Shown here in pieces: positions 20,132 to 52,660 of a stretch of 64,000 nucleotides of DNA. This stretch comes from Bdellovibrionota bacterium (GTDB taxonomy: Bacteria; Bdellovibrionota_G; JALEGL01; DATDPG01). The notes beneath the pieces are model-generated. The model made no database searches, had not been told where the DNA came from, and was given only the letters and a program-made list of their open reading frames with translations. Location of the stretch: the NCBI GenBank assembly GCA_035292885.1, contig DATDPG010000019.1, forward strand, positions 59,570 through 123,569, written 5' to 3'. The position numbers and the translations under genes are program-made. Positions within the stretch are counted from its first letter, which is position 1; each line of letters starts with the position of its first letter.

Positions 20132-20132
20132 C

Positions 20133-21715: not shown

Positions 21716-21719
21716 TGCG

Positions 21720-22931
21720 ATGAACGGGCGGATTCCGATGGCCGTGTTCACCGTCGTTTTGGGCGCATCCTTCATGCTCGGCGGCTTCGCTCGGAGTGAG
21801 GAGGAGAATTGGCTTCCATCGGAGCCGCTCAAGGGGCGAGTTGTCTTCGAGCAAAAGCACTGCCCGCAGTGCCATTCGATCGGAGGCGCGAAAGGCGGGG
21901 TCGGTCCCGATTTAGCCGAAGCGGGAACGTATTTTCACGGGAGCTTTCTCCAGCTCTCATCCATTTTATGGAACCACATTCCGGACATGCTGGTGGAATA
22001 CAAAACGCGAAATCTTTCTTGGCCGAGTTTCTCCGAGGACGAGGTCGGCTATCTGATTTCCTATCTGTACTATCTGCGATACTTGGGAAGCCCGGGCGAT
22101 GTCGCCAACGGCCAGCGCCTCCTCCAGACGAAAGGGTGCGTCGCCTGTCATGCCGTCGGGAAACAAAAAAAGGCGGGGGACGCGCCTCCGCTGGATCAGC
22201 TCAAGAAATATGTTTCGCCGCTCTACCTGGTGCAGGCGGTTTGGAATCACGGGCCCCGGATGCAGCGGATGATCGAACAAAAGGGAATCAAGCGGCCGAC
22301 ATTCGACGGTCAGGAAATCAGCGACATGAGCGCGTACATCCGCAACGTAAGCCGCTGGAACACCGAGGAGAAAGTGTATCTCTCCCCGGGCGATCCGAAG
22401 AACGGAGAACGGGTGTTTGAAAGCAAGGGGTGCGTCAAGTGTCACTCCGAACAAAGGGGGAGGAAGCGGGCGCCGTCGCTGGAGAAGTCGAGCCTGAATG
22501 AGAGCGCGGCGGGCATCGCGGCGCTGATGTGGAACCATGCGGATGTCATGATGAGTTCGATGAAAGAGGAGAAAATCAGCTGGCCGACGTTCGAAGGGCG
22601 CGAGATGCCCGATCTGGTCGCATACCTGTTCTTTCTGGATTTTCTGGAACCGCCGGGAAACGCCGCAAAGGGCAAGGAGCTATTCGGCCAGAAACAATGT
22701 TCCTACTGTCATTCGATCCACGGAGCCGGGGGTACCATCGGACCCGATCTCGCGGTCGTCGGTTCTCTTTCCTCCACCCGGTCGATCCTCCGGATGATGG
22801 TGAATCACGCGGAAAACATGTCGGAAGCCGTCCTGGGCGCCGGGAAAGCCTGGCCGGTTCTGGGCGGTGACGAGATGAATAACATCTTCGCGTACTTAAA
22901 AAGCGTCGAACGGAAAGAAAAAAAGAAATAG
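21720..22931 (+). CDS. tetraheme cytochrome c built of four class-I cytochrome c domains
   Basis: Signal peptide. Four CxxCH motifs, each followed by GPDL and a distal MWNH motif (candidate Met ligand). RBS ggaaagg. Paralog of the gene at 37130..38365. Confidence 0.75.
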   Translation: MNGRIPMAVFTVVLGASFMLGGFARSEEENWLPSEPLKGRVVFEQKHCPQCHSIGGAKGGVGPDLAEAGTYFHGSFLQLSSILWNHIPDMLVEYKTRNLSWPSFSEDEVGYLISYLYYLRYLGSPGDVANGQRLLQTKGCVACHAVGKQKKAGDAPPLDQLKKYVSPLYLVQAVWNHGPRMQRMIEQKGIKRPTFDGQEISDMSAYIRNVSRWNTEEKVYLSPGDPKNGERVFESKGCVKCHSEQRGRKRAPSLEKSSLNESAAGIAALMWNHADVMMSSMKEEKISWPTFEGREMPDLVAYLFFLDFLEPPGNAAKGKELFGQKQCSYCHSIHGAGGTIGPDLAVVGSLSSTRSILRMMVNHAENMSEAVLGAGKAWPVLGGDEMNNIFAYLKSVERKEKKK

Positions 22932-37129: not shown

Positions 37130-38365
37130 CTACGGTAAGTGCTTCGCATTCGGACTCGCCGGAGCCAGGCTCGTCAGAAACGCATAGAGATCCGCCATCT
37201 CCCGGCCCGTCAGTTTGGGCCACTTCAAGTGTTGCTCGGTATGCTTCTCTTGCATCTCGGTGGAGTGGTTCCACATCGCCGCGACCATGCCCATGGGGGA
37301 GTTCAATTTGCTGATGGCGGCGAAATCTTTCGCCGCGTTTCGTCCCTTGCCGTTTAAGGAGTGGCACGTCAGGCATTCTCGGTCCCTAACGAGATTCTCC
37401 CCTGTGGCGGGGCTCCCCGGTGCGTCCTCCAGTTTCATGCTGTAGAGATACGCGATGACGTGCGCCATCTCCCCCTCCTTGAAATCCGGGAACGTGAGTT
37501 TCTTTTCTTTCATCATCTCCCACATGGCGGGGCCGTGATTCCACATCTTGGCCGCGATCTCGGTCACGGGATAGTTGAAATCGACCTCAGCGAAATCGGG
37601 CGCCGTGGTTGGTGGTTTGGCACGGAACGAATGGCAATGCATGCACCCTTTTTCGGTCAAGAGTTCCTTCCCCTTTGAGGGATCGCCGAGGTCATAGTCG
37701 CTGGCCGGGAAGACGGTCGGGGCCATATACGAACGGATTCCGGCGGCCAGGGCGTCCATCTCGTCCTCTTCGATGACGGGCCGATCGATCTTGTACTTCT
37801 CAAAAAGCGCCAGCATTTTCGGGCCATGGTTCCACATCGCTTCCGCCAGTCGGATGGGGGAGATGTATTCCTTTTTCGCGCTGATGTCGGGAGCGATTCG
37901 GGCGCCTTCCCCTCCAAATTGATGACAAGAGAAGCATCCCTTTTCCTTCAGCACCTTTCTTCCCATCGATTCCCTCACCGGTTCCGCCATGTACCGGATG
38001 AAAGAGAGATAGCGAACCAGCTCGGACATCTCCTTCGGCGTGAACTTCGGAAAGGCATACCCTTTGGTCTCGATCTTCTTCGCCATTCTCGGAAGGTGAT
38101 TCCACATGACGGAAGAAAGCTCGAGGTATGTACCGTAAAACTTGCGGTTGCCCAGGTCGGGACCGCCGCGGCCCCCCCTCCCGTACACGGAATGGCACTG
38201 CGCGCATCCCTTCTGATGGAAGACTTCCCGACCCGGCCACGGTGAGGCCGAAGTGGCTGCTTCCTGCGCCCGAAGGGCGAAAATGGAGCCGGATGACATC
38301 AGGAGATACGCGAGAATGAATTGCAGGAGGCGGATGCAGTTTCTCCGGGTAGTGGACATAGTCAC
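37130..38365 (-). CDS. tetraheme cytochrome c of four class-I domains (paralog of 21720..22931)
   Basis: Signal peptide. Four CxxCH motifs, each with a GPD and a downstream MWNH motif. Confidence 0.75.
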   Translation of the reverse strand: MTMSTTRRNCIRLLQFILAYLLMSSGSIFALRAQEAATSASPWPGREVFHQKGCAQCHSVYGRGGRGGPDLGNRKFYGTYLELSSVMWNHLPRMAKKIETKGYAFPKFTPKEMSELVRYLSFIRYMAEPVRESMGRKVLKEKGCFSCHQFGGEGARIAPDISAKKEYISPIRLAEAMWNHGPKMLALFEKYKIDRPVIEEDEMDALAAGIRSYMAPTVFPASDYDLGDPSKGKELLTEKGCMHCHSFRAKPPTTAPDFAEVDFNYPVTEIAAKMWNHGPAMWEMMKEKKLTFPDFKEGEMAHVIAYLYSMKLEDAPGSPATGENLVRDRECLTCHSLNGKGRNAAKDFAAISKLNSPMGMVAAMWNHSTEMQEKHTEQHLKWPKLTGREMADLYAFLTSLAPASPNAKHLP

Positions 38366-38828: not shown

Positions 38829-39257
38829 TCATTCTTTGAAGGGATTGAGGATTCGCAAGTCCTCTACGTGAAAACCATGCTGCAGGTCTTCGGTATAGAG
38901 CGCGTCACAATTCGAGGCCAGTGCCTGAGCCACAATGGCCGCATCCCAGAAAGACCAGCGATAACGATGCCGAAGGCGACACGCGTGGACGAAGATTTCC
39001 TGAGTTGTCACGACCGGGTCCCATGAAAAGTAACTACGACAGACATCGACGGCATCCTCGAAGGAAAGAGGTTTCGGGATCTTGGTCGCGACCGTGACGA
39101 GAAATTCCTGCAACACCTGCAGGCTCGTCGCAGCCGATTGGTTTTCCCAATGGGCCTTTACGAGATCCGAAGATCGATTTGATTTACCGGAATCACTTCG
39201 ATCATACGCATAGACGAGAATATTCGTGTCAAAGAAAGCGCGCCTATTTTCGGACAT
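38829..39257 (-). CDS. vapC: PIN-domain toxin (VapC)
   Basis: FFDTNILVY N-terminus and conserved acidic residues of the PIN fold. 142 aa. Confidence 0.7.
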   Translation of the reverse strand: MSENRRAFFDTNILVYAYDRSDSGKSNRSSDLVKAHWENQSAATSLQVLQEFLVTVATKIPKPLSFEDAVDVCRSYFSWDPVVTTQEIFVHACRLRHRYRWSFWDAAIVAQALASNCDALYTEDLQHGFHVEDLRILNPFKE

Positions 39258-39489
39258 GCAGGGCGTCCCTCGACCAGGTCACCTTTCCCACTTCATACAG
39301 GCCCTTCGCCATTCTTCGCATTTCCTTGCGAAACGCACGTTGATGAAGCGATTTCCGCGAAATGAGTTCGTGGGCGTATTTGGCAAGAAGCCTGGAGACA
39401 GACTGGTTGGCTTCGGCCGCGGCGATTCGGAGCTTTCGCAACAACGGGCGGGGGAGGGTCAACGTGATGTTTTCGAGATCTCTCTTCAT
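39244..39489 (-). CDS. vapB: ribbon-helix-helix antitoxin (VapB/CopG-like)
   Basis: MKRDLENITLTLPRPLLRKLRIAAAEANQSVSRLL RHH pattern. Overlaps the vapC start. Confidence 0.55.
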   Translation of the reverse strand: MKRDLENITLTLPRPLLRKLRIAAAEANQSVSRLLAKYAHELISRKSLHQRAFRKEMRRMAKGLYEVGKVTWSRDALHVRK

Positions 39490-39551
39490 TACACTATTAT
39501 CGTGTAACACGATTATCGTGTCAATGCCTCGACCGGGTGGTGCCAAGACAG

Positions 39552-40793
39552 TTACTTGCGCGGCGGAGGAAGCGAACGGATTTTGAGAGCCAGAGCGATG
39601 ACCAACAACGTGAGGAATATTGTGCTGATTCCGAGGCCGACTCGGCGGGTTTTGTTTTCGCGGAGAGCGGCTTTCCCCAAAGCGATGGCTTGATCCACAG
39701 CTTTTCGTCCCTCCGTGATCTTCGCCTCCACCCCCGGCATGGAAAAGGAGTGAATCTCGGTTCGTGCCTGAATCAACGCCTGCCGGGCATTTTGCATGCT
39801 GTCCTCGGCTTCGGTGACGTCCATTCCCTTGTCCCTCGCTTCTTCGATAATCTTCGAAGCTTCGGCCGAATAATTCTTCAAAGAGCCGATCATCTTGGAG
39901 AACGCCATGGCCACGGCGGCGCCTTTATCCCCCTCTTTGTGGCACTTGGCGCAGATCGCGCCTTGCTGCGTCCCGATCCGGTCATCTGAGATGTGAACGA
40001 TCAGATGATTGCCGTGGCAGGAAATGCATTCGCCGTAGGGATCCTTCTGCAGGGCTTTCGCCATGGGACTCTTGAGAAACAGCTCGGCGTTGTGGACGTG
40101 GCAGGAGCCGCAAATATGGGCGATGGATTTCAGTCCCGGCGGTGTGGCGCCGTGGTTGCCGTGACAATCGTTGCAGGCGGGAGCGCCCCGGACATCTCCT
40201 TTTTCAAGCAGAGCTTTCCCATGCACACTTTTCGCGTACTCGGCATAGACGGTCGTCGAGATCTTGTACGGCTTCATATATTCGGGGTCGGCGTGGCAAT
40301 GGGCGCACATCGTCGGCAGGTTCACCGCGTAAACCGGAGACTTCGCGTCGTTGACTTTCCGGATGTTGTGCACGCTGTGGCAGCTGACGCATTCGGCGAC
40401 TTTGGTGTCCCCCTGTTTCAGTTTCTTGCCGTGCTGGCTGGTCAGGTAGAGCTCATACTGATCGACCCGAAGCATCGGGTTGTATTTCTTCATGAAGACC
40501 GGGTTGCTGTGGCATTTCGCGCAAAGTTTCGGAATGTCCGCCCTCTTCGGCGCCCCTTTGAAGCCTTTCTTCGGGTCCATTGAGATATCTTGGTCGTCCG
40601 AGGTCGGATCTCCGCCGTGGCATTCGTTGCACCCGATTCCCGCCGTGGCGTGCACGTCATCCTTCCAGCGGGTGGAGGGCTCATCTTCCATCGACTGATG
40701 GCAGATAAGGCATTGGCCGCCGGGCAGCGCAGCAGCTTCTTCGGCGTATGCCGACGAAAGTACGTTCAGCAGAATGAATAAAATCCAACTCAT
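39552..40793 (-). CDS. membrane-anchored nonaheme c-type cytochrome (cytochrome c subunit of bc-type complex)
   Basis: Signal MSWILFILLNVLSSAYA. Nine CxxCH motifs. C-terminal TM helix (GLGISTIFLTLLVIALAL). The start overlaps the cytochrome b stop. Confidence 0.75.
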   Translation of the reverse strand: MSWILFILLNVLSSAYAEEAAALPGGQCLICHQSMEDEPSTRWKDDVHATAGIGCNECHGGDPTSDDQDISMDPKKGFKGAPKRADIPKLCAKCHSNPVFMKKYNPMLRVDQYELYLTSQHGKKLKQGDTKVAECVSCHSVHNIRKVNDAKSPVYAVNLPTMCAHCHADPEYMKPYKISTTVYAEYAKSVHGKALLEKGDVRGAPACNDCHGNHGATPPGLKSIAHICGSCHVHNAELFLKSPMAKALQKDPYGECISCHGNHLIVHISDDRIGTQQGAICAKCHKEGDKGAAVAMAFSKMIGSLKNYSAEASKIIEEARDKGMDVTEAEDSMQNARQALIQARTEIHSFSMPGVEAKITEGRKAVDQAIALGKAALRENKTRRVGLGISTIFLTLLVIALALKIRSLPPPRK

Positions 40794-41881
40794 GCGAGTA
40801 CGTGTCCGGCGATGGTCATTCCTATAAAAAAAAGCAATAGCGCCATCCCGATGCCGCGGAGAATCTTTGTGGTCGATTTCTTTTTTCCGCAGTCGATCCA
40901 TGGAATAAGCAGCCAAAACACGCCGATCCCGCCGAAGATCATGTGTCCGACCAGCTCCCCGTCAATCGGCCCCACCTTGGCGGGCAAGAACTTGAGCGTC
41001 TGGAACATGAAAAGGAAATACCACTCCGGTTTGATTCCGGCCGGGGCGGAGGCGAAAGGATCGGCTTTCCTTCCCAGTTCCCAGGGGAAGAAGACCGCCA
41101 GGATCGCCAAAATATCGAGAATGATAAACCAAAGTAAAACGTCCCGGAGAAAGAAGTGCGGGAAAAACGGGATACTCTTCCGGTTTTCCGGGTGGCGTTT
41201 CCAATCTTCGGGCTCGTGCATTCCCTGGATCTGCACGAACAGCAAATGAATACCCAGAACGGAAGTGAAGATCGCCGGGAGGAGGGCGACATGCAAAGCG
41301 AAGAAGCGGGTCAGCGTAGAGCCGGTGACTTCTTCTCCGCCGCGGAGAACATGCATGAGGGTTTTCCCGATGTACGGCACGACGCCGATCATGTCGGTGC
41401 CGACCTTGGTGGCGAAGAAGGAAAGTTCGTTCCACGGCAGCAGGTAACCCGAAAACCCGAACGTCATGACGATTCCCAGAAGGGCGAGCCCCGTGACCCA
41501 GCTGAGTTCGCGGGGTTTCCTGTAAGCTCCCATGAAAAAGACGCTGAACATGTGGATGATGACGGCCAGGACCATCAAATTGGCCGACCAGCTGTGGATC
41601 GACCGGATCAGCCAGCCGAAAGGCACTTTCGATGTGATAAATTGAACGCTCTCGAAGGCCGCGTCGGCGCTCGCCTTGTAATAGAACATCAGGAGAATGC
41701 CGGTGGAGAGTTGGACGATGAAGAGAAAGAGGGAAACTCCGCCGAAGTAATACCAGATCGCGGTCTTTCCCATCGGCACTTCTTTGTGCCGCCCCCACTC
41801 AATCAGCTGTGCGATGGGATATCGGTCGGACAGCCATTCGATCGCGAGAGCGGCCCTACGCTTTAAGTGAGATGTAAACAT
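40790..41881 (-). CDS. cytochrome b (fused b6/subunit IV type)
   Basis: Conserved His-containing helices (WSANLMVLAVIIHMF, FFALHVALLPA). PEWYFL motif. Confidence 0.8.
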   Translation of the reverse strand: MFTSHLKRRAALAIEWLSDRYPIAQLIEWGRHKEVPMGKTAIWYYFGGVSLFLFIVQLSTGILLMFYYKASADAAFESVQFITSKVPFGWLIRSIHSWSANLMVLAVIIHMFSVFFMGAYRKPRELSWVTGLALLGIVMTFGFSGYLLPWNELSFFATKVGTDMIGVVPYIGKTLMHVLRGGEEVTGSTLTRFFALHVALLPAIFTSVLGIHLLFVQIQGMHEPEDWKRHPENRKSIPFFPHFFLRDVLLWFIILDILAILAVFFPWELGRKADPFASAPAGIKPEWYFLFMFQTLKFLPAKVGPIDGELVGHMIFGGIGVFWLLIPWIDCGKKKSTTKILRGIGMALLLFFIGMTIAGHVLA

Positions 41882-42308
41882 CTTCTCCCTGAACGTGGAC
41901 TTCGTACGTGTCGAGCGGGTGAGGCGGCGGGCCGGCCACATTGTTTCCGTTCAAATCGTATTGACCGTTGTGACAAGCGCACCAAATGCGCTCCATGTCG
42001 GGCCGGTACTGGACGATGCAGTCGAGGTGCGTGCATTTTCCCGTGAACGCGGCGAAACTGCCGTCCTTCTTGCGGACCAGCAGCGCCGGTTTGTTTCCGA
42101 ACTTGCAGATTTTCCCGCTGTTCGGGGGAATCTCGGAGACCGCAGCGACTTTCGCCGAAGAGACTTTGGCTTCGGTCTCCGCGACAGGAGTGAGGTAGCG
42201 AACGATCGGATAAAAGACGGACCCCACCCAGGCGAAACCGCTGGCCCCTAAAAGGGTGTTCAAGAATCCGCGTCGGGAGGTTTCGGTCGAGCTTCGAATC
42301 GGTTTCAT
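41856..42308 (-). CDS. Rieske [2Fe-2S] protein, TAT-exported
   Basis: SRRGFLNTLLGA twin-arginine signal. CTHLDC and CACHNGQY Rieske boxes. Confidence 0.85.
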   Translation of the reverse strand: MKPIRSSTETSRRGFLNTLLGASGFAWVGSVFYPIVRYLTPVAETEAKVSSAKVAAVSEIPPNSGKICKFGNKPALLVRKKDGSFAAFTGKCTHLDCIVQYRPDMERIWCACHNGQYDLNGNNVAGPPPHPLDTYEVHVQGEDVYISLKA

Positions 42309-42596: not shown

Positions 42597-43094
42597 TTAG
42601 GCACTTTCTTGCCCTGTAAGTTTTCTCAATTCCGCTGCGTCGAAAAGGTCCTTGTCTCTGCCGGCTCTGTCCTTCATTTCAATCAGGTCCATTTTGCCGA
42701 TCACTCTAATTTTAATTCCAAAGGCATCGACCAACAATTGCCTGCCCGCAAGTTCCTGAAATGGCTTGGGTTCTTGTGAAAAGACATCGATGACTTCAAA
42801 TGGATTTCCCGGGTGAATGAAAGAGAAAACCATCATTCCCTTTTCCTCTATCCATTCTTTGCGTTTATGCGCATCGGCGAAATCTTTTGCATCAACCGGC
42901 AGGCGGGGCTTGAAACCAAGATGCGAGACCATTTCTACAAATGCCAGGACATTTTTGCGCTCAAGGTGCACGATGAGATCAAGATCCACGGTCGCTCGTT
43001 GGACCTGATGAAAATTCACGGCGAATCCGCCTGCGACGAGATACTCGATTTTTCTTCGGTCAAGCTCAATGAAAAGTTCTTTGTACGGAACCAT
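42597..43094 (-). CDS. nucleotidyltransferase-fold protein (uncharacterised), inserted inside respiratory gene cluster
   Basis: YLVAGGFAVNFHQVQRATVDLDLIV NTase-type motif. 165 aa. Confidence 0.4.
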   Translation of the reverse strand: MVPYKELFIELDRRKIEYLVAGGFAVNFHQVQRATVDLDLIVHLERKNVLAFVEMVSHLGFKPRLPVDAKDFADAHKRKEWIEEKGMMVFSFIHPGNPFEVIDVFSQEPKPFQELAGRQLLVDAFGIKIRVIGKMDLIEMKDRAGRDKDLFDAAELRKLTGQESA

Positions 43095-43236: not shown

Positions 43237-45168
43237 TTAAGGGTTGGGGCGATCGAGTTCGCGCGGATGATCCCGTTCCATTTCATGGCGGGTCACTTTG
43301 CCCGTGAGCCACGTTACGTTCATCGGATATTCATCCGGATGGAATATCACGAAGAAGAGGTGCCACACGAGAATGGCCAGCGTCGCCAGCCACGCCTCAA
43401 AATAGTGAATCAACTCCGCCAGCGGGATGCCCCAAACGGGAAGGAATCTTGAAAACAGTTCTGGAAACCAGAGCGCAAAGCCCGTGACCGACATCACGAT
43501 CGTTCCCCAAATGAGCGCCCAATATTCCGCCTTGTGAATGTACGTGTACCGGCCGAGCTTCGGTGCCGTGGCTGCGCGCGCCCGGACGAGTTTAACGTAA
43601 TAAAAGATGTTGGCCGATAAATCCCGGACATCCGTGAGACGCGGAAGAAGCTCCCGAATCTCCTTTCGGCCCTGACGTGTGAAGATCGAATGGAAAATGT
43701 GAAGGACTCCCGCGCTTAACATGATCACCGCGCTGGTACGATGGATGACGCCGCGAGCGTGTTCACCCAAATGAACCCAATCCAAAATCACCGTCCAGCC
43801 GGCGCGAGAAAAATGAAGCGCGAAGCCGGTGATGACAAGCGTCGTAAAGCTCACCAGGAGCAGGCCGTGAGCCACGAGCTGAATCGTTGTGAATCGGGTG
43901 TAGACGACTTCTTCCCGGTGTGAGCGGATCTTTTTCACGACGGCCGCTGCATAAATGAGCAAGTTATGAAGAAGCATCAGGCCGATCGTGCTGACAATCA
44001 TCCAGAGATAGAGAATGCGAACCCAGTAGAGAATGGGGCTGGCTGTCGGAGAGGTGTCCAAGTGCACGGGAACGCGGCTGAACGCCTGCGTTGCATCGGG
44101 GTGGCACTTGCCGCAGGTCTTGGCCAGGTTGTCCGGATGAATCGAGGAGCGGGTATCGGAAGAGGGGAGAATCCGGTGCGTTTCATGGCAGCTGGAACAG
44201 TTTGCGACGGTGACCGAGCCGCGCCGGACGGCCATGCCATGATAACTCTGCATGTACGTTGAAAGCCGTTGAATTGAAAATCCGTATCGCTGGGCCAGAG
44301 TAAGATCGGAATGACAGTGGCCGCACGTCTTCGTTGTCAGCTGTGCAGGCGACACAGGCGATTCAGGCGATTTCGTGTCGACGATGGCGTGTTCGCCGTG
44401 GCAGTCCGTGCAGGCGGGGGCGTCCGTAATCCCGCGAGCGACGGCCTGTCCGTGCACGGAGACCTTATAATCTTCTAAGATATCGCTGTGGCATCTTCCA
44501 CATGTTGCGGGAATTTGTTTCTTCGAAACCGCGGACATCATTTCACGTCCCGGCTGGATCGTGTGATAGCCGTGACAGTCGGTACAGACGGCGGCTTTCA
44601 GATTACCAGCCGCAATGGCACGACCGTGGACGCTGTTTTTATACGCGCCGACAGGGTCGGACACGGGGATGTCGTATTTCTTGGCGAGTTTGATGTCGGC
44701 GTGACACTTGGCGCACAAAGCGGGGACGTTGGCTTTGCTGTGTCTCGCGGTTTCGCTGGTGAACGGCTGAATCAAATGCGCGTCGCCGTGGCAATCGACA
44801 CAAGAAGGCGCATCTGAAATCCCATTGTTCTTTGCAGTGCCGTGCGTGCTGCCGCGGTACTCCTTTTCGGCATCTTCATGACAGCTTCCGCAATTTACTT
44901 TTTGTGGAGCTTCCTCATGCTCGCCGAAGGGCCCGCCGGCGTGGCAGTCGGTGCAGGCTAGTTCGCCGTGGACGGAAGCCTTGAAAACTTTGGGATCCAC
45001 GACGTCATGGCAATCAACACACTTTTTCGGATCGATTCGGTTCGCGGCAAAAACCGACGAAATCGCAAACATTGCGCAGCCGACGAATGCCAAGCCCGAT
45101 TTTGTAAAGGGAACCCCGGTCGGTTTCAAAAATTGGACACTCATCCGATGAAAACGCCCGCCAAGCAT
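43237..45168 (-). CDS. 11-heme c-type cytochrome fused to a C-terminal b-type di-heme membrane domain (CbcL-like quinol oxidoreductase)
   Basis: Eleven CxxCH motifs in the N-terminal 380 aa. C-terminal 260 aa with about 5 TM helices and conserved His (HydC/FdnI-like). A possible alternative start at 45144 (MSVQFLK) gives a signal peptide. Confidence 0.75.
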   Translation of the reverse strand: MLGGRFHRMSVQFLKPTGVPFTKSGLAFVGCAMFAISSVFAANRIDPKKCVDCHDVVDPKVFKASVHGELACTDCHAGGPFGEHEEAPQKVNCGSCHEDAEKEYRGSTHGTAKNNGISDAPSCVDCHGDAHLIQPFTSETARHSKANVPALCAKCHADIKLAKKYDIPVSDPVGAYKNSVHGRAIAAGNLKAAVCTDCHGYHTIQPGREMMSAVSKKQIPATCGRCHSDILEDYKVSVHGQAVARGITDAPACTDCHGEHAIVDTKSPESPVSPAQLTTKTCGHCHSDLTLAQRYGFSIQRLSTYMQSYHGMAVRRGSVTVANCSSCHETHRILPSSDTRSSIHPDNLAKTCGKCHPDATQAFSRVPVHLDTSPTASPILYWVRILYLWMIVSTIGLMLLHNLLIYAAAVVKKIRSHREEVVYTRFTTIQLVAHGLLLVSFTTLVITGFALHFSRAGWTVILDWVHLGEHARGVIHRTSAVIMLSAGVLHIFHSIFTRQGRKEIRELLPRLTDVRDLSANIFYYVKLVRARAATAPKLGRYTYIHKAEYWALIWGTIVMSVTGFALWFPELFSRFLPVWGIPLAELIHYFEAWLATLAILVWHLFFVIFHPDEYPMNVTWLTGKVTRHEMERDHPRELDRPNP

Positions 45169-45213: not shown

Positions 45214-45588
45214 TTATTTCGCCTTTGACTGCAGGTCTCGCGTGTATTCCGTCAACGCCGTAATGTCGGCGTCCGACAGTCCTTCCAACTTCTTCATCTT
45301 CCCTTTGCCCTCTTTCATCGACTTCTTAATGTCGTCGTCGGTGATTTTCTTGGCTTCGGGGGAAAGGATGCTGAGCCCTTCCGGCTTTTCGAGCTTCAGG
45401 GTTTTAGCTACCGGCATCCAGGAGCCGTCCGCCTTCTTTCCGCCGCCGTCTTCCGCGTGGCATTTCTTGCAATGCTTGTCGTACAGCGCCTTTTTCGCGG
45501 CGTCATCCGCCGCGAATGCGGACGCGGCAAACATCAAAGCGGGCACAACCAGGATTCCGATCAGTCCAATCAACGTCTTCTTCAACAT
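45214..45588 (-). CDS. periplasmic monoheme class I cytochrome c (paralog of 12625..12975)
   Basis: RBS ggagg 7 nt upstream of the ATG at 45588. Signal peptide. CKKCH. Near-identical core (LYDKHCKKCHAEDG.GKK...KTLKLEKPE) with the first copy. Confidence 0.8.
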   Translation of the reverse strand: MLKKTLIGLIGILVVPALMFAASAFAADDAAKKALYDKHCKKCHAEDGGGKKADGSWMPVAKTLKLEKPEGLSILSPEAKKITDDDIKKSMKEGKGKMKKLEGLSDADITALTEYTRDLQSKAK

Positions 45589-45644
45589 AGGCTTCCTCCA
45601 GTGTTTCTTTTTAGATGATGCCAAATTTACGAACATGATTCGGA

Positions 45645-45686
45645 TCAATGAAATGAAAAGAGGGCCGGCCCGTATGGGCCGGCCCC
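45645..45686 (-). terminator. intrinsic terminator after the outer-membrane cytochrome gene
   Basis: gggccggccc-gtat-gggccggccc GC hairpin followed on the minus strand by a T-rich run. Confidence 0.5.
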
Positions 45687-45719
45687 GTCAATCGCTCTGG
45701 ACGGTTCAAACTCTCGCGC

Positions 45720-48700
45720 TTAACGCAACGTCGCGTTCGGAACCGCCACGCCGGTGATTACCTTATACGTCCCTTGGAGGACGCCGACCTCGTATCCGGC
45801 GTTATGGACGCCCATGCTGCCGTCTCGAACCACCAGATTGTGGTTCCAGATCGCCCGGCGGATCTTGTCGGATCGGGCCCACTTGAAGGCCCCGCCGGCG
45901 GGATAGACGCTAACGCCGGGGTTGCAGTCCGCGGCGTTCGTGCAGGCCGTAGTAAGGTCGTTGTCGCACTTGCCGGCAATGTACGCCCCGCACGTGCTGA
46001 GGCACTTGTCGTGCGTCGGCGTCGGATCCAAAGGATCGACCGTACCACACGAGATGGTCGTATCTTCTTTGCACCGGTTCTTGCTCGAACCCGAGGTATT
46101 GCACGGACGCGCATCCGCGCCTGCACCGTTGAAGTTCGAGTAACCCAGAGCGTCCGGAACGATGCAGTCGTTGTCCGTGGAACACTCGATCTCATCCGTA
46201 CTCCCGGCGGTGGACCTCGGTTTTGCGATGGTGCACTTGTTGGTCGCAGTGACACAGGGGCCGAAGTACATCGTCCCCGTCGTCGCAATTTTGCAGTCCT
46301 CGTCCTTGGAGCAACTATAGGCCGAACGTTGATCACACTTTCCGGCTGTGATCGTCCCGCACGGTCCGTAGTTCGTCGCTGATACGGTCGTCACATTCAC
46401 CTTCTTCAGGTTGCATCCGGCATCCGAAGTGCAGAATTGAGCGTCGGCCACAATCGTAGTACTTGCTGCCGAGCAAGTCTTGACCGCGTCGCAACTCGTG
46501 TCACCAGCCGCCGTGCAACTGATGTAGGGCGCCAGCGTACACTTCTTGTTTGCGTTGCAGTCACCCGCGTCCAGTGTAGTGACACTGCACGTTCCCAGGT
46601 TCACGTCGTCGTACGCTTTGATGGCGTCCGACAAGAGGAGCGCAAGCCCCGTGACTTCGTCCTGGATCCCCTCGATCGTCCCATCGCCGTCGTAATCGCC
46701 GCGAGCCTCACGGTTAATCTCCGTGAGATCCGTGTGACATGGCGTGCACGCGCTGATGTTCGCGAGCTCACCCGCTTCACCGGCTACGGTCTCCTCTTCC
46801 TCGGCACCGACTAGATGGCCGACGCCGTGACCGCTCATAATGTTGAAAGAGTGACCGCCCAAGTGGCGGAACCCATCCTCCGTCGCATCCGGCCCCTCGG
46901 CCATGTGGCACGTGAGGCACTTCCGGTTCTCCGTCGGCAATGTCGGGTCACCCGAAACATCCGCCAGAATAAATCCCGGCTCGGAATGGAACGAATTCCC
47001 CGTTGTGAAGACATCGTCGATTCCGTTTTTGTCGAGGTCGAGAAGAGCCCCCTTTCCTTCGAGAACGGGAGCCTGCGGATTGTAGTGGACCTGTCGCGTG
47101 TAATAGTCCGCGTTTTGCTCCAACGTCTCGCAGAGCGTATCTGAAACGCCGTCGCGATTCGTGTCGCACGAAAACTCTCCGAAACTGTAGAGGCCGTCGT
47201 GGCACTTGTAACAAACGGCCGCCTTCCCGGCATCCACTGTCGATTCGTCGATGATCATCTCGAGCTCTCCGTGCATTCGAAGCTGGTCCTCGTTTGTCGC
47301 GTCGTGCGGGTCATGACACCCAGCGCACCCGATACCGACGAAAGCCTCCTGTTCCGTGATCGGCGTGAGGGCTTCCTCGCCCCCCTCCACATAATTGATG
47401 AAGCCCTTGGAGGTATGGCAGCGTGTACAGGCTGCGTTCGTGAGCCATGAAACCTGATAGCTGGCGGAGCCGTGCGAGACGCCGGTCATGTTGTGCGAGG
47501 AGTTGATCCATTCGGCCTCTTGCGTATGACACTGGCCGCAGATACCGGTCTGAGAAGCGGAGACACCGATCTTCGTGGCGTCGCCGTTGTGTCCCGAACC
47601 CGGGCCATGGCAATTCTCACACTGAACACCGCTTAGAGCGGCCACGGAAGGCGCATCCGCCAAGAAATCGGCGTATGTGCCCGGCTGGGTGGAAACGTCA
47701 AAGCCGGTCGAGGCCACGGCCTCGTCAAATCCGCCGTTTGCGGCGGACGTATTGTAACCGACCGTTTCAAAGCCCCACAGATAGGGCTCGGGTGCCAGCG
47801 ATGACATGGCCAGATACGAATTTTCGTAGAGCTTTGAGTGATTTGTTCCCTGCCACTCGCCGACTTTGTCCGGCATCGCCGAACCGTCATGGCATCCGGC
47901 GCACTCGGGCCTCGCCGCGTCGCCGGTGATACTTCCGATGCCTACATACGTCCCGGCATACATCCGGAACGAACCCACGATCGTGCAATGATCCACGCCG
48001 CCGTCCGAGGTGTATTTACAATTGGGCGCGACACGGCCGCACGCCCGTACACCATCCGCATCGGGTCCCACAGCCGATTCATCGACCGTCGCCGTGTAGG
48101 CCACCGTGTAATACCCCTCGACATCCGGCGTGAACTTGGGGAGCTGAAGCGCTGAGGCTACGGTTCCGGAATCGGCAAAAACGGCTGCAGATCCATCCGG
48201 GGGTGTCAGCGTCCAAGACCAGTCATCGTTGATGGGCTTGGCGCGCCTCGTGGTCGGCGTGCTCGTCGAAGGCAACGAACCGTTACACGCTGTCGAAGTG
48301 GATGTGTACTCCAATATGACCGAACTGTTCGGTCCCTGCAGGTAGAGGGGAACATTCAGCGGAACGGTCCAAAGACCGCTCGACCGCTGAATCTCGGCAC
48401 CGGCGTCCTGAACATAGACCACCTGTGTCGTGCTGTCGCTGTTCCCGGCACCGTCGTCCACCGTCAACCTGAAATAGAGTTTCGTATCTTCGATCGAAAC
48501 AGGGAGCGGTTGCCACTTGTACTCATCACTTTGTCCGCCGTGCGCGGCGTTCTCCTCAGCTTCCCTCAAACCGACGGTCAGAAAATCCTTAAGCGCGGGA
48601 GCGGTGAACGGAAGAGTTGAGGACGTGCTCCCGGCCGTCGCGGTCGCGAAGGGGCCGGAGACCTGCTGCCAGCTGTAGTTCACGACACTTCCGCGGCTGT

Positions 48701-49163
48701 TTTCGCCGGAGAGAATTCCACCCGCGTCTTCCAAATCGATGGCCAGTTCATCCGTTCCGAATCGTGTGCGTGTGGTGATGGTGGAACCGGAACCGTTCGT
48801 GATGACCGCAAGAATCGTCTTGGCCGTGACGCTGACCGTGTCGGTGCTTTCGGCATCGTGGAGAGAGAGTTTCAACACGTACGTGCCGGCCGCGTCCGCG
48901 ACAAAGCTGGTCGCGATTTCGGAACCGCCCGTCAGAGCGGCGGAAGAACCGTCGGGTTTCGATTCAAGCGTCCATATAATATTGCCGACGACCGTGCTTC
49001 CGGAACCGTCCAAATTCACGGTGTCGCCGATCAGGACCTTCTGGTCCTCGCCTGCGTTAGCGGCGGCGGTCCCTTCCGGATCGTCGTCGCATGCCGAAAC
49101 ACTGATCGCCACGGCGGCAGCCGCGAGAAGATTGATCATCCAAAGTCCCTTCGTGCTTTTCAT
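45720..49163 (-). CDS. 1147-aa cell-surface multiheme (8 CxxCH) lipoprotein cytochrome with PKD/Ig-like N-terminal domains and Cys-rich C-terminal region (OmcB-like position)
   Basis: RBS gagggagag. Signal with lipobox ISVSAC. Eight CxxCH motifs between roughly residues 420 and 830. C-terminal region with dozens of Cys. Last gene of the porin-cytochrome operon. Confidence 0.7.
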   Translation of the reverse strand: MKSTKGLWMINLLAAAAVAISVSACDDDPEGTAAANAGEDQKVLIGDTVNLDGSGSTVVGNIIWTLESKPDGSSAALTGGSEIATSFVADAAGTYVLKLSLHDAESTDTVSVTAKTILAVITNGSGSTITTRTRFGTDELAIDLEDAGGILSGENSRGSVVNYSWQQVSGPFATATAGSTSSTLPFTAPALKDFLTVGLREAEENAAHGGQSDEYKWQPLPVSIEDTKLYFRLTVDDGAGNSDSTTQVVYVQDAGAEIQRSSGLWTVPLNVPLYLQGPNSSVILEYTSTSTACNGSLPSTSTPTTRRAKPINDDWSWTLTPPDGSAAVFADSGTVASALQLPKFTPDVEGYYTVAYTATVDESAVGPDADGVRACGRVAPNCKYTSDGGVDHCTIVGSFRMYAGTYVGIGSITGDAARPECAGCHDGSAMPDKVGEWQGTNHSKLYENSYLAMSSLAPEPYLWGFETVGYNTSAANGGFDEAVASTGFDVSTQPGTYADFLADAPSVAALSGVQCENCHGPGSGHNGDATKIGVSASQTGICGQCHTQEAEWINSSHNMTGVSHGSASYQVSWLTNAACTRCHTSKGFINYVEGGEEALTPITEQEAFVGIGCAGCHDPHDATNEDQLRMHGELEMIIDESTVDAGKAAVCYKCHDGLYSFGEFSCDTNRDGVSDTLCETLEQNADYYTRQVHYNPQAPVLEGKGALLDLDKNGIDDVFTTGNSFHSEPGFILADVSGDPTLPTENRKCLTCHMAEGPDATEDGFRHLGGHSFNIMSGHGVGHLVGAEEEETVAGEAGELANISACTPCHTDLTEINREARGDYDGDGTIEGIQDEVTGLALLLSDAIKAYDDVNLGTCSVTTLDAGDCNANKKCTLAPYISCTAAGDTSCDAVKTCSAASTTIVADAQFCTSDAGCNLKKVNVTTVSATNYGPCGTITAGKCDQRSAYSCSKDEDCKIATTGTMYFGPCVTATNKCTIAKPRSTAGSTDEIECSTDNDCIVPDALGYSNFNGAGADARPCNTSGSSKNRCKEDTTISCGTVDPLDPTPTHDKCLSTCGAYIAGKCDNDLTTACTNAADCNPGVSVYPAGGAFKWARSDKIRRAIWNHNLVVRDGSMGVHNAGYEVGVLQGTYKVITGVAVPNATLR

Positions 49164-49189
49164 GTTTTCTCTCCCTCTCATGAAAGTTC

Positions 49190-49849
49190 TTACTGCGTAT
49201 GACATATGATGCAAGCCTGTCCATTGTCCGGATGCCGAAGCGGCGTATGGCAGCCCCGGCAATCCGCGTTAGGTAGATGGTTGACGTTGCTCGGTCGCCT
49301 CGGCGTGGCCATGTGAGCCGAGCTCGTTTGGTGGCACACCACGCACCTCTGTGCCCCATACGATTCCAGCGGGTAATGACAGTTCAGGCAGTGCCGATTT
49401 TGGGACGCCCCGAACCCGGCCATGTGATCGATCGGCTTCGTTTCCATATGGCACCGCTGGCAGAAGTCGGTCCGGTGGCACGTCATGCACTGCGATCGGT
49501 CGAAGCCCACCTGGAGCGCATGGCCGCGGAGGCGGAAGAATTGGTTGTGATTCGCCGGCGGCGTGATCTGGTGGCATTCCGAGCAGCTGGACTGCGTGTG
49601 GCAGAGGTTGCAGCTGTTCTTCGTGTCGAACCTAAACCGCTGCACCAGCGCGCCGTGCTCATGCTTGAACGTCAAATCGTGCCAGGCCGGTTTCGTGTCT
49701 TTGGTCATCCCGCCTTCGTGACATTCCGAACAGTCGCTGTCTCGCGCAACATCCGGGTGCTCCCACGTTGTGCCTTCGTCGCACCCTTTGTTGCCGAGAA
49801 AAAATGGGACCGCGAGCATTATTGTTAAAACAGACAACGATCGTCTGAT
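49190..49849 (-). CDS. nonaheme periplasmic c-type cytochrome (OmaB-like; paralog of the heptaheme 13308..13937)
   Basis: Nine CxxCH motifs. Shares the SCxxCH..SSCxxCH and FCxRCH patterns with the heptaheme gene. The 5' end is uncertain because the ORF extension runs into the 119-bp palindrome. Confidence 0.7.
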   Translation of the reverse strand: MRRSLSVLTIMLAVPFFLGNKGCDEGTTWEHPDVARDSDCSECHEGGMTKDTKPAWHDLTFKHEHGALVQRFRFDTKNSCNLCHTQSSCSECHQITPPANHNQFFRLRGHALQVGFDRSQCMTCHRTDFCQRCHMETKPIDHMAGFGASQNRHCLNCHYPLESYGAQRCVVCHQTSSAHMATPRRPSNVNHLPNADCRGCHTPLRHPDNGQACIICHTQ

Positions 49850-49851
49850 GG

Positions 49852-49970
49852 GGTGCCAAGAAAATACGTTCGGGCTCCGGTCCCGACGGTACCCCCCAAG
49901 TCCATGCTCGAGACTGCGCGTGGACTTGGGTGTCCCCGTCGGGCCACCCGAACGTATTTTCTTGGCACCC
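49852..49970. repeat. 119-bp near-perfect palindrome between porin and nonaheme cytochrome genes
   Basis: Arms gggtgccaagaaaatacgttcggg (49852-49875) and cccgaacgtattttcttggcaccc (49947-49970) are exact reverse complements. Nested inner arms cccgacgg/ccgtcggg and aagtcca/tggactt. Starts 1 nt after the porin stop. Confidence 0.7.
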
Positions 49971-49971
49971 T

Positions 49972-51312
49972 TCAAAAGTTCCAAGCGACCCTCACATCCA
50001 ACGTATGGAAATTGTCCAGGTCACTGGTTTCAAATTCGTACCCGAGCCGCCCCTCAAAGTCTTTGAGAAACTTCACGGTTCCCCGCGCATAGTACGTTTG
50101 GACGTTGTCCGATTCGTTCCCGGCTAAAAGGTTATATCGATAGAGGTAGAAAGCTGTTCCGGCCGTCAGCCGCAGCTTCCGCTTCAACAGGTCTTGGGCG
50201 ATGGAGAAAGATGTCCCGTACGTATCGTTCTGAAGTTCGTTGTCCTGTCCCAAATAGTAATCGCCGGTTAACGAAAGGCTCATGCCGTCGAGCGGCCATT
50301 CGATCGTTGACCCCGTCAAAAAGAACCGCTGAAAACCGTGATTGAACGCACTGGCGACCTGCTCTTCAATCAAAATACGGAATGCATACCCCGCATCCAG
50401 GGCAAAATGCTCGCCGATCCCCTTCATCCCGGTGAAGGCCATTTCGTAATACGGTTTGTATTCCCCGGCGAACGAATACGGATCCAGATCGATCACGCGG
50501 ACACCGTACGACTCGAGGAGACTGAAGAAGTGAAACTGGAGAGAAAGGTTCTGTTCGATGAATCGGTACCGGGTGTCGAGGGCCAAGTCCCGGACTTGAT
50601 CCAAGAACGATGTAAACCTCGAGGAAATCATGAGCCCCGGCTGGGCGTCCCACCAAACGCTCAGGCCGAAGAGATCATCTTCGATGTCACCGACGTTCGC
50701 CCGGAAGCCGGTGAAGTCATCCTTCAAATGAACGTAATCGAAACGGGCCCGAACCACCTTGACCGGATCGATCTCAAACGCTCCGCCGGCGACAAAATCG
50801 CCGCTGTCGGAACCGGTTTCCGTTTCGTAGAAATGGACCGGAACGCCGCCGTACGACATCAGCTTGAACCCTTTGGCTTCCCGCCACTGAAGGGAGAGGC
50901 CGTCGAAGTACAGCGACTCGAATTCCTGCCGGAACTGCCGTCCCGCGCGAAGCCGATCGAATACGCCGAGGTTGTTGGCGTCGAGGTAGGCGTGGTAGAT
51001 CCGCCCCGCGGCGCCGGTGTTGAAGGAGTCGTACACGCCATTGAACGTGGAATCCGAACTGTCGCCGTCCAGGTCGAAAATCCCGCCGGCCTGCAGGGAA
51101 ACCGCCACGCGGTCGTTCAAAGGCTCGCCCATGTTGAGCGAAAGAAGCGTTTCAAGATCCTGATCGCTGGTATCGGCGGTGGCGCGCAGTTTGTAACGGG
51201 TGCTGATGGAACCGAAAATATTGGAGTCTTCCGCGATCGCCGCATCGCAATAGACATACGCCCCAAAAAGGAGAAGCGTACATCCCAACCGACGGCGGCG
51301 AGAGGCGAGCAT
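49972..51312 (-). CDS. outer-membrane beta-barrel protein, candidate porin of the second porin-cytochrome conduit
   Basis: Signal MLASRRRRLGCTLLLFGAYVYCDAAIA. 446 aa. Amphipathic beta pattern. C-terminal VRVAWNF. Confidence 0.55.
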   Translation of the reverse strand: MLASRRRRLGCTLLLFGAYVYCDAAIAEDSNIFGSISTRYKLRATADTSDQDLETLLSLNMGEPLNDRVAVSLQAGGIFDLDGDSSDSTFNGVYDSFNTGAAGRIYHAYLDANNLGVFDRLRAGRQFRQEFESLYFDGLSLQWREAKGFKLMSYGGVPVHFYETETGSDSGDFVAGGAFEIDPVKVVRARFDYVHLKDDFTGFRANVGDIEDDLFGLSVWWDAQPGLMISSRFTSFLDQVRDLALDTRYRFIEQNLSLQFHFFSLLESYGVRVIDLDPYSFAGEYKPYYEMAFTGMKGIGEHFALDAGYAFRILIEEQVASAFNHGFQRFFLTGSTIEWPLDGMSLSLTGDYYLGQDNELQNDTYGTSFSIAQDLLKRKLRLTAGTAFYLYRYNLLAGNESDNVQTYYARGTVKFLKDFEGRLGYEFETSDLDNFHTLDVRVAWNF

Positions 51313-51973
51313 GATAAATCAACCTACAATGTGAATCGTCCCCATACGGATTCCATGACGTAAATCAAGTTGCTGAATATTTCTCAACTTCTTGATGATT
51401 CCAAGAATAATCTCACAATCAACGCGGGCAGCCGCAAAGGATCCAGAATTTCCTCTCTTGGCGGTTTCGACGAAATCCCGCGTGATGGCGGCAGGGAGCG
51501 GGTGGATTTTCGATACAGGCGGGCGAACCGCCGAGCGGGCAATCTTCGCGCAAAGCTGTGGAAAAAGGGTCTTCCGGCCGCATCAGCTGAAGAACGCCGT
51601 TGAAGGCGAAACCGTGCGTCGCCAAAACAACGACCTTTCCTTCTTTTTCGGCCATGCGGGTTCCCGGTTTCTCGAAAACTCATTATCACCGATCATCACG
51701 CCGAAGAATAGGACTGAAATCAGGATTGGAACGCTTGGACCGCCGACCAAAGGGCGAACCCGAAAAAAAGCGCCGCGGCCACCCATCGGACCCACTTCAT
51801 TTTGATCTTTTCGGCCATTCGGTCGCCCAAATAGACGGCCAGACCGCCAGCTCCGACGACCGGGCGGAATTCGTGCGTAGGAACGTCAACTCGTCCGATT
51901 TTCTCAAATCCGTACTCATTTGAGAGGCGTCGAAGGCTCTCATTGTGCTACTCTCCACTCGACGACGAATCCC

Positions 51974-52660
51974 ATGGGCCAGAACGAACGACGAATCCAC
52001 ACACGGCTTCAGCTGAGCGAGGAGGTCCGGGCCTCCACTCCCAAAGGCTTTCTGACAGGCTACCTCCGAGATGTCTCCAAAGGGGGCGCGGGAGTCGTCT
52101 TCGAAGAGAGCGTCGGGGATGTCGGGGAAACGATCGAGATTTTTCTCCCCTTCCCCGGCGGCGTGGAGATCGCCGTGATGGCGGAGATTGTCCGAATCCA
52201 AGAAACCCAGGGCGGTCTCTTGCACGGCCTCTGCTTCAGCCTCGTTGAACCTTCGATGCAGGAAAAACTTCTGACGCTCGTCGAGACCCTCCTCGCCGGA
52301 TCGGGGGGAAAGCGACGGGAGCACCCGCGCGTCTCCAAGAGAATTCCGATCCGCTACGGGAACCAGGCGGAGTTTCAAGCCGGCCTCCAAACGATCTCCA
52401 TGGGTGGGTTGTCGATGATGATCGACACTCCCGTGGTTCTCTTCCAAGAGGTCGAAGTCTCCATTCCGGACGTCAGCGGTCGCGAACTTCTCATCCTCCC
52501 CGCCCGGGTGATCTACCAGCACAACCTCGAGAAAAGTGGAAAGAAGCAGTATGAGGTCGGTCTTCAGTTCCGTGAACTGACGGGTCCGCAGAAGGCCTGC
52601 CTCGCCGAACTCCTCCGCTACGTGATGGATACACCGGCCGACGCCACAGGTTCCAAGTGA
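51974..52660 (+). CDS. tandem PilZ-domain protein (putative c-di-GMP receptor)
   Basis: RRIHTRLQL...DVSKGGAGV and RREHPRVSKRIP...TISMGGLSM motifs. Confidence 0.6.
   Translation: MGQNERRIHTRLQLSEEVRASTPKGFLTGYLRDVSKGGAGVVFEESVGDVGETIEIFLPFPGGVEIAVMAEIVRIQETQGGLLHGLCFSLVEPSMQEKLLTLVETLLAGSGGKRREHPRVSKRIPIRYGNQAEFQAGLQTISMGGLSMMIDTPVVLFQEVEVSIPDVSGRELLILPARVIYQHNLEKSGKKQYEVGLQFRELTGPQKACLAELLRYVMDTPADATGSK

Follow-up and report, generated by a model that had tools for sequence, protein, structure and literature searches.

The stretch of DNA analyzed here (hereafter, the window) comprises 64,000 nucleotides (nt) of contig DATDPG010000019.1 from a Bdellovibrionota bacterium (assembly GCA_035292885.1), and all positions are numbered within it. 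On its minus strand lies a gene cluster for an outer membrane beta-barrel, a compact nonaheme c-type cytochrome, a large lipoprotein cytochrome and a monoheme cytochrome c, which we read, with a probability of about 0.72, as a porin–cytochrome electron conduit. The reading is strongly supported, above all by conserved synteny: in a data set of 48 genome loci plus three metagenome or metagenome-assembled genome (MAG) contigs, a homologous multiheme cytochrome (37–54% identity) directly follows the barrel gene in about 45 loci, i.e. in every locus unless the contig ends. An earlier reading, made without database searches (the sequence-only reading), had proposed a divergent porin–cytochrome conduit with the gene order of Geobacter, and both the structural model of the barrel and the synteny, which extends over two clades, bear it out. 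The four open reading frames (ORFs) that it had listed on the minus strand are all present, the motif counts (CXXCH) agree with the 9, 8 and 1 hemes it had assigned, and an independent gene-calling pipeline, applied to identical contigs of other assemblies, finds the same genes with 446, 264, 1147, 124 and, for a cytochrome fusion that comes next in the row, 630 residues, reproducing the claimed lengths of 446 and 1147.

Conservation of the barrel–cytochrome pair

The loci fall into two clades. In the close one the barrel is 42–49% identical to that of the window and the accompanying cytochrome carries 9 hemes in about 220 residues; its MAGs are labeled as Deltaproteobacteria, Bdellovibrionota, Myxococcota or Pseudomonadota, groundwater being the source of many of them. 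The distant clade corresponds to Planctomycetota, including the anammox lineages Candidatus Subterrananammoxibius, Candidatus Anammoxibacter and Brocadiaceae, with barrels that are 26–32% identical and a cytochrome of 13 hemes in about 340 residues, whose additional N-terminal portion is similar to ActA of alternative complex III (ACIII). The third gene usually encodes a cytochrome of 640–1100 residues with 8 or 10 hemes, homologs of the large cytochrome of the window being found in the close clade only, and in one locus (L006) it has a domain of the MtrC type instead. Such a constant pairing of porin with inner cytochrome, next to an outer cytochrome that varies, is exactly the porin–cytochrome (Pcc) pattern that Shi et al. 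2014 described (PMC4245776).

Four Planctomycetota loci (L014, L018, L032 and L047) show a different arrangement, in which the barrel/13-heme pair is followed by a 3–4-heme protein of about 135–400 residues (about 135–195 in three of them), together with a protein of about 1000 residues bearing a single CXXCH and a 188-residue monoheme protein, and the usual 10-heme cytochrome is absent. This gene set suggests another variant of the outer module.

Concerning the inner membrane side, modules of the CbcL-like or Rieske/cytochrome b type stand beside the barrel in 15 other loci. A CbcL-like gene is found near the barrel in six Planctomycetota loci (32–40% identity), and Rieske/cytochrome b homologs lie within 8 kb of it in 8 other loci. 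One locus (L007) has the same five-gene order as the window, including the monoheme cytochrome c, and its CbcL-like protein is 61% identical. The place of the inner membrane module is taken, in L004 and L005, by an NrfD/NrfC/tetraheme module together with a monoheme cytochrome c. Because the core repeatedly sits beside a quinone-interacting membrane module, these data support a complete pathway leading from the inner membrane to the outer one.

The outer membrane barrel

The AlphaFold2 (AF2) model of the 446-residue protein, built on 40 homologs, reaches a mean predicted local distance difference test score (pLDDT) of 86.9 and a predicted template modeling score of 0.79, and shows 24 beta strands behind an N-terminal signal helix, neither a plug nor a periplasmic domain being present. 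A Sec signal peptide (...DAAIA/EDS) opens the sequence, and its last residues, ...AWNF, are a typical C-terminus of outer membrane proteins. The protein is predicted with confidence to be a 24-strand outer membrane barrel, in line with the beta-barrel claimed in the sequence-only reading. A fused porin–cytochrome of the Cyc2 type was considered and rejected, the barrel having no heme motif.

The barrel finds no match in Pfam and NCBIfam at E <= 0.1, nothing significant in the PDB by sequence, and nothing there by profile at E <= 10, MtrB included. Its sequence agrees, at 100% identity, with a hypothetical protein that NCBI lists for a 'Bdellovibrionota bacterium' MAG, and ten distant homologs that were looked up are all registered as 'hypothetical protein [Planctomycetota]'. 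The family, which comprises 1037 representative 50%-identity clusters at E <= 1e-3 (509 at E <= 1e-30) in a profile search, is covered by no Pfam or NCBIfam model, and no looked-up member is named.

Structural comparison retrieves large outer membrane barrels, and the best match is the translocation pore of the FimD usher. This match is what one would expect if the barrel served chiefly to export the large lipoprotein to the surface, as a translocon of the usher or Slam kind, with no role in electron transfer, and it is also known that MtrB is required for the surface display of MtrC. Yet barrel and inner cytochrome remain coupled whichever third gene is present, and we consider a pure translocon very improbable.

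The nonaheme cytochrome

The second protein packs 9 hemes into about 200 residues, i.e. about 22 residues per heme, and is even denser in heme than MtrA. A comparison of 17 close homologs shows all 9 CXXCH motifs and 10 further His to be invariant, which would suffice to give every one of the nine hemes bis-histidine (bis-His) ligation. The protein matches no family of Pfam or NCBIfam, nor does the PDB contain a solved relative detectable by sequence (phmmer) or by profile, MtrA included.

Three start codons may be considered: TTG 49984 (264 residues), TTG 49837 and ATG 49819, which is the 209-residue NCBI call. Counted from the first of them, the ORF is overlapped by the barrel stop by 13 nt and opens with MELLKG, to be compared with the MEILKR of the homologs, in which a hydrophobic stretch and then an invariant N-K-G-C-E follow; the window protein has about 40 extra residues ahead of the hydrophobic stretch. 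Since classical L-x-G-C lipoboxes occur in distant homologs, lipidation at the invariant Cys is conceivable.

The large lipoprotein cytochrome

The ORF of the large cytochrome spans 45720–49262, its true start being ATG 49163 (MKSTKG...). From the N-terminus onwards the protein presents a lipobox (...AISVSAC) with Cys25 as the lipidation residue, about four immunoglobulin (Ig)/PKD-like domains (~30–400), an octaheme OcwA/OmhA-like domain (~410–850), an insertion with 24 Cys (859–1080) and NrfA-type helices (~1095–1140). Both the lipoprotein nature and the PKD-like domains had been proposed from the sequence, and both hold: the lipobox is present, with VSAC ending at Cys25, PF22352 (K319L-like PKD) matches with E 6e-11, next to matches to PF09699, PF14522 and PF13435, and the AF2 model, which is confident only at residues ~30–400 (pLDDT 55.7 overall), resembles in this part strings of three to five Ig or cadherin domains as well as a Bacteroides surface glycan-binding lipoprotein. 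These Foldseek matches bear on the Ig arrays only, and not on the heme core. Signal peptides, whose absence would have told against the sequence-only reading, are likewise present, the N-terminal processing of the nonaheme protein being ambiguous.

Regarding the heme core, the 8 CXXCH motifs are invariant in 20 homologs, and the profile of the family matches OcwA (6i5b) at E 2e-15 and OmhA (6qvm) at E 7e-12, the alignment with OcwA being collinear over 4 segments, from the first heme through the C-terminal ...DGSxGxHN... helix, with a confident match that spans only about 130 positions. Weaker matches include MtrA, NrfA and c554, and MtrC appears only at E 0.012. By these profile comparisons the large cytochrome is best described as a putative OcwA/OmhA-like member of the NrfA superfamily. 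OcwA and OmhA have been characterized as terminal reductases of the cell surface and are, by structure, members of the NrfA/c554/MccA group (PMC6703420, PMC9250108).

Apart from the heme motifs the protein contains 31 Cys, 24 of them in the insertion, which is about 220 residues long, shows a repeated C-x7-C-x7-C-x5-C spacing and is rich in Thr, Ala, Ser and Asp. As the 24 extra Cys follow an even-numbered repeat pattern, they would form the disulfide-rich repeats of an exported surface protein. The insertion is shared by one homolog only (74% identical) and, searched alone against Pfam and NCBIfam at E <= 10, returns nothing, so that a likeness to myxococcal Cys-rich repeats finds no support. 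The Cys-rich region of the sequence-only reading is real, then, but it is an insertion ahead of conserved C-terminal helices and not a tail. Equally, the description of the outer cytochrome as unusually large applies to its heme density, of about 143 residues per heme, but not to its length, since the homologs have 640–1100 residues and far larger outer cytochromes are known (PMC5566968).

The relationship to the NrfA/c554/MccA/OcwA superfamily, shared by heme domain and C-terminal helices, raises the question of whether the octaheme protein instead acts enzymatically on a soluble N- or S-oxyanion or a comparable compound, as NrfA, MccA or OTR do, with the nonaheme protein as electron donor and the barrel as a mere channel for substrate or product. 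OcwA itself reduces nitrite, turns over hydroxylamine and has two hemes with open coordination (PMC6703420), and in the window protein one of the 8 hemes may lack a His distal ligand, only 6 invariant plus 1 near-invariant non-motif His being available. We nevertheless regard such a function as improbable. The large cytochrome has no CXXCK or other catalytic-heme motif, while its lipid anchor, Ig stalk and disulfide-type insert point to a surface protein. A plug-less barrel of 24 strands is much wider than substrate porins of 16–18 strands. Moreover, the pair of barrel and inner cytochrome is kept where the third gene encodes a different, MtrC-domain cytochrome, and it constitutes a two-gene cluster in Kuenenia (PMC4245776).

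Probable transcription units and inner membrane modules

The sequence-only reading had regarded the four genes as a complete operon. The genes are real, but a terminator lies among them and related redox genes run on to about 39552 (Table 1). The hairpin, a strong one of the canonical intrinsic type, separates the three-gene core from the monoheme gene: it lies 35 nt past the stop of the large cytochrome, a U-run stands behind the stem, and the 81-nt region around it folds at -35 kcal/mol (z -3.95). Because of this terminator at 45686–45661 the four genes are probably not one transcript. Considering also that the monoheme gene has a ribosome-binding site of its own (GGAGGA), the more likely arrangement is one of two units, the first with three genes, and read-through may link them.

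Table 1. Coordinates of the proposed conduit genes, of the redox genes that continue the row and of a further quinone-interacting gene set in the window.
Feature	Position	Strand	Remarks
Predicted outer membrane beta-barrel, 446 residues	49972..51312	-	0 CXXCH; proposed conduit sheath
Compact nonaheme c-type cytochrome	49190..49984	-	9 CXXCH; proposed wire within the barrel
Lipoprotein cytochrome, 1147 residues	45720..49163	-	8 CXXCH; proposed surface-exposed terminal redox module
24-Cys insertion region	45879-46601	-	Residues 855-1095 of the large cytochrome
Putative intrinsic-terminator hairpin	45661..45686	-	11-bp stem, 10 G-C pairs, then CUUUUCAUUU
Monoheme class-I cytochrome c, 124 residues	45214..45588	-	1 CXXCH; proposed periplasmic shuttle
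11-heme c domain fused to a C-terminal multi-transmembrane b-type cytochrome (HydC/FdnI type)	43237..45168	-	11 CXXCH, PF01292
Small nucleotidyltransferase-like gene, 165 residues	42597-43094	-	Weak nucleotidyltransferase/AbiEii similarity only
Rieske protein	41856-42308	-	Pfam Rieske; 0 CXXCH
Cytochrome b	40790-41941	-	Pfam Cytochrome_B, Cytochrom_B_C; 0 CXXCH
9-heme cytochrome with C-terminal transmembrane anchor	39552-40916	-	9 CXXCH
Molybdopterin oxidoreductase	16940-19444		
4Fe-4S protein	19445-20131		
NrfD-type membrane subunit	19851-21485		
Tetraheme class-I cytochrome c	21678-22931	+	In the Psr/ACIII-like gene set

The monoheme ORF spans 45214–45648, with ATG 45588, located behind the Shine-Dalgarno sequence, as its start. 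The protein has a Sec signal peptide (...ASAFA/ADD), matches PF00034 (E 2e-10) and PF13442 (E 3.5e-9) and yields sub-threshold matches to c6/c551 models of NCBIfam; a Met after GKGK lines up, by eye, with the Met ligand of c6. Its homologs adjoin the barrel in L007 and L008, and monoheme cytochrome c genes stand beside the cluster in L004, L005, L010 and L013.

The functional unit is larger than 45214–51312, as it includes the quinol-side protein encoded at 43237–45168. This ORF has 643 residues in our coordinates, to be compared with the 630 of the independent pipeline, with its 11 CXXCH at residues 50–356, a PF01292 match (E 2e-9) at residues 425–611 and, in a crude hydropathy scan, at least 5 His-bearing hydrophobic transmembrane segments plus a possible sixth. 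Judged from this domain layout, it has the architecture that defines the CbcL/MtoC/MtrH family. Further along the row, the Rieske, cytochrome b and 9-heme genes (39552–42308), which also give NCBIfam matches to cytochrome b6 and ExtP, both sub-threshold, seem to encode a bc-type quinol oxidoreductase with a multiheme acceptor. This complex is probably also part of the functional unit, as a second inner membrane module for the same pathway.

Toxin–antitoxin-like genes are scattered through the row. At 38829–39546 (-) lies a VapC/PIN-like ORF, called by sequence inspection without a Pfam match, which overlaps a small ORF that resembles an antitoxin; the 165-residue gene at 42597–43094 (Table 1) is counted with them. 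In L004 and L005, too, PIN and AbiEii genes occur near the cluster.

Proposed electron path and its direction

In the mechanism that we infer, including the complex that the proteins would form, their topology and their partners, electrons would leave or enter the quinone pool through the 11-heme/cytochrome b fusion, the Rieske/cytochrome b/9-heme complex or both, and would cross the periplasm, possibly by means of the monoheme class-I cytochrome c. They would then pass into the compact nonaheme cytochrome, seated inside the plug-less 24-strand barrel; the barrel would be an insulating sheath and the nonaheme protein the wire through the membrane. The next station, at the cell surface, would be the lipid-anchored cytochrome, in which a stalk of Ig domains would bear the OcwA-like octaheme head.

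The direction of flow cannot be read from the sequence. Outward flow, with Fe(III)/Mn(IV) minerals, humics or electrodes as respiratory acceptors, is given roughly even odds, and it is favored because of the likeness to OcwA/OmhA, the CbcL-type protein and the work on anammox bacteria at electrodes (bioRxiv 10.1101/855817). The same hardware could also run inward, with Fe(II), reduced minerals or other cells as sources of electrons, in which case the monoheme cytochrome c would deliver them to a terminal oxidase or reductase, and reverse flow via either the bc-type complex or the MtoC-like protein would bring them to the quinone pool. A class-I monoheme cytochrome c beside the conduit recalls the pathways of Fe(II) oxidizers, CbcL homologs (MtoC) occur in the mtoAB clusters of Fe(II) oxidizers and no sequence feature tells the two directions apart (PMC6295460), a Rieske/cytochrome b complex adjoins, and the relatives come mostly from groundwater and soil MAGs. 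We consider uptake somewhat unlikely, given that, among characterized proteins, those most closely related to the surface cytochrome serve Fe(III) reducers as terminal reductases, that the nonaheme protein looks bis-His ligated, which usually means a low potential, and that the monoheme cytochrome c has no match to MtoD at E <= 0.01. Besides, no carbon-fixation or oxidase genes were found in the scanned parts of the window, which is too small to judge physiology. Whatever probability the two directions leave falls to bidirectional use or to another substrate.

It should be noted that several observations weigh against the conduit itself. The N-terminus of the nonaheme protein is ambiguous: counted from TTG 49984, 49 residues precede the hydrophobic segment, and directly after it comes the invariant N-K-G-C (49783–49797, residues ~64–68), which does not conform to a classical lipobox and makes no clean signal-peptidase I site either. 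Of the periplasmic nonaheme cytochrome c proposed in the sequence-only reading, the 9 hemes stand, but with an uncertain start and an invariant Cys directly behind the hydrophobic segment the periplasmic location is tentative. In the large cytochrome an Asp occupies position +2 after the lipid-modified Cys, where the homologs have S, G, A or N; in E. coli an Asp at this position leads to retention in the inner membrane, a rule that is not universal. Its heme domain comes from a superfamily rich in enzymes for soluble substrates, and AF2 gives low confidence for this domain (pLDDT <50–65) and for the Cys-rich insert. On the genetic side, the terminator parts the core from the monoheme and CbcL-like genes, and toxin–antitoxin genes interrupt the row of redox genes.

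Other genes in the window

A second, unrelated porin–cytochrome-like pair is contained in 13308–16301. Its first member is an ORF of 409 residues (13897–15126, -) that has a signal peptide, ends barrel-like in ...ARYVYF and matches nothing in Pfam; against the first barrel family hhalign assigns it a probability of only 2%. The next gene (13308–13937, -) encodes a lipoprotein-like cytochrome with 7 hemes and partial homology to the nonaheme family (hhalign 97.5%, E 9e-12), and a cytochrome with 9 hemes, divergent in sequence, is encoded at 15120–16301 (+). Adjoining this pair, a Psr/ACIII-like quinone-interacting complex occupies 16940–22931 (Table 1). Its tetraheme cytochrome (21678–22931, +) and the product of 37130–38365 (-) are paralogs of about 410 residues with four class-I heme domains each, every domain carrying a repeated ...MWNH... 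motif, and one of the two paralogs closes the redox row downstream of the bc-type complex.

Genes noted elsewhere, at 500–1861 (-), 2357–3553 (+) and 10412–12463 (-), may also be relevant and include those for an outer membrane barrel of the Alginate_exp type, for NnrS, a heme-copper membrane protein, and for FeoB, which transports ferrous iron. Divergently from the conduit barrel, 51920–52660 (+) encodes a PilZ protein, of the kind that binds c-di-GMP.

Comparison with known systems

A literature search, whose coverage is incomplete, returned no description of this clade or of an OcwA-like outer component in a diderm conduit, and what it yielded on UBA10199 cytochromes and on PKD-domain porin–cytochromes does not describe the cluster. 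If the conduit reading is true, extracellular electron transfer would extend to an uncultured groundwater and soil lineage labeled Bdellovibrionota or Deltaproteobacteria, and a barrel family without a curated model, with more than 1000 clusters, many from Planctomycetota including anammox bacteria, would receive a testable name and anatomy. The recurrent pairing with CbcL-type or Rieske/cytochrome b modules would provide markers to predict complete inner-to-outer-membrane pathways in metagenomes, and the OcwA-like head suggests a shared ancestry of the terminal modules of electron transfer in Gram-positive and Gram-negative bacteria. Should the system turn out to be ordinary, it would still be a well-defined addition to the porin–cytochrome types used by FeGenie and MHCscan. 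A bolder proposal, which we hold to be doubtful, is that the barrel and its compact multiheme partner define a large unnamed conduit family (at least 1000 50%-identity clusters), in one branch of which the surface module would be an Ig-stalked OcwA-like octaheme head with a disulfide insert; the conduit would power an extracellular, enzyme-like cytochrome acting on solid or soluble substrates, and would represent an evolutionary bridge between Gram-positive surface reductases and diderm porin–cytochrome systems.

The Pcc of Geobacter sulfurreducens (OmbB-OmaB-OmcB) has the same order of porin, inner multiheme cytochrome and outer lipoprotein cytochrome. It differs in that its inner cytochrome is the 8-heme OmaB, compared with 9 hemes in about 200 residues here, and its outer one the 12-heme OmcB, compared with the 8-heme, OcwA-like protein on an Ig stalk. 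The claim that the cluster mirrors the Geobacter logic thus stands for gene order, but the outer cytochrome is OcwA/OmhA-like and, by the models applied, not MtrC/OmcA-like, and the likeness to OmbB and OmaB lies in gene order, their sequences being connected to the present ones only through a published BLAST result. This result concerns kuste4024/4025 of Candidatus Kuenenia stuttgartiensis, found by BLAST from Geobacter OmbB/OmaB, with 338–344 residues and 12–14 hemes (PMC4245776), and a Brocadia ortholog of the pair was reported to be expressed in electrode-respiring cells (bioRxiv 10.1101/855817). The anammox branch of the barrel family has the same format, a porin plus a 13-heme cytochrome of about 340 residues, and its loci may be the equivalents of kuste4024/4025, judging from taxon, size and heme count only; the Kuenenia inner cytochrome has 12–14 hemes in contrast to the 9 of the window protein. 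The Kuenenia pair is the likely bridge to OmbB/OmaB.

Shewanella MtrCAB and the MtoAB/PioAB systems follow the same logic, namely a large plug-less barrel, a heme-dense wire and, at the surface, a lipoprotein cytochrome; the barrel has 24 strands here and 26 in MtrB, the two being of similar size. As to membership in the MtrABC families, the outcome is negative for each of the three proteins: the barrel has no match to the MtrB/PioB porin models (PF11854, TIGR03509), the nonaheme protein, with 9 hemes and not 10, has none to the MtrA/DmsE decaheme family (TIGR03508), and the large cytochrome, with 8 hemes and not 10 in two pentaheme domains, has none to the OmcA/MtrC family (TIGR03507, PF22113), while 12 of its 20 homologs do match PF22113 (MtrC/MtrF domain II/IV). 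The cluster resembles some mto/mtr clusters, too, in containing a CbcL-type (MtoC/MtrH) gene (PMC6295460). Members of this family of inner membrane quinol oxidases or quinone reductases, within which sequence identities range from 28.6 to 100%, combine an N-terminal multiheme c domain (3–23 motifs) with a C-terminal HydC/FdnI-type b cytochrome (PMC6295460), and the window fusion, with 11 motifs and a multi-transmembrane b cytochrome, is likened to them by its architecture, showing 5 clear transmembrane segments, and possibly a sixth, against about 6 in the family.

PCC3 and PCC4 (He et al. 2017) are, like the present cluster, putative porin–cytochrome clusters found by genomics and equipped with an inner membrane b-type partner. 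PCC3 differs in its roughly 21–63 hemes, its low-complexity, repeat-rich cytochromes and its 5-transmembrane partner of about 300 residues (PMC5566968), none of which is seen here, and an identity with PCC3/PCC4 was rejected on these grounds.

The closest counterparts of the surface cytochrome are OcwA of Thermincola potens (6I5B), with which the heme domain of the 1147-residue protein is collinear from the first heme to the C-terminal NrfA-type helices, and OmhA of Carboxydothermus ferrireducens (6QVM), surface terminal reductases of Gram-positive metal reducers; for the window protein, too, a location at the cell surface is proposed. In the OcwA/OmhA clade two penta-coordinate hemes are flanked by conserved distal His pairs. 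The window protein departs from them in having 8 hemes, rather than 9 or 11, and in its lipoprotein anchor, its Ig/PKD domains, about four in number, and its 24-Cys insertion. It is encoded, moreover, in a diderm porin–cytochrome cluster, whereas OcwA and OmhA are associated with a Gram-positive wall or S-layer.

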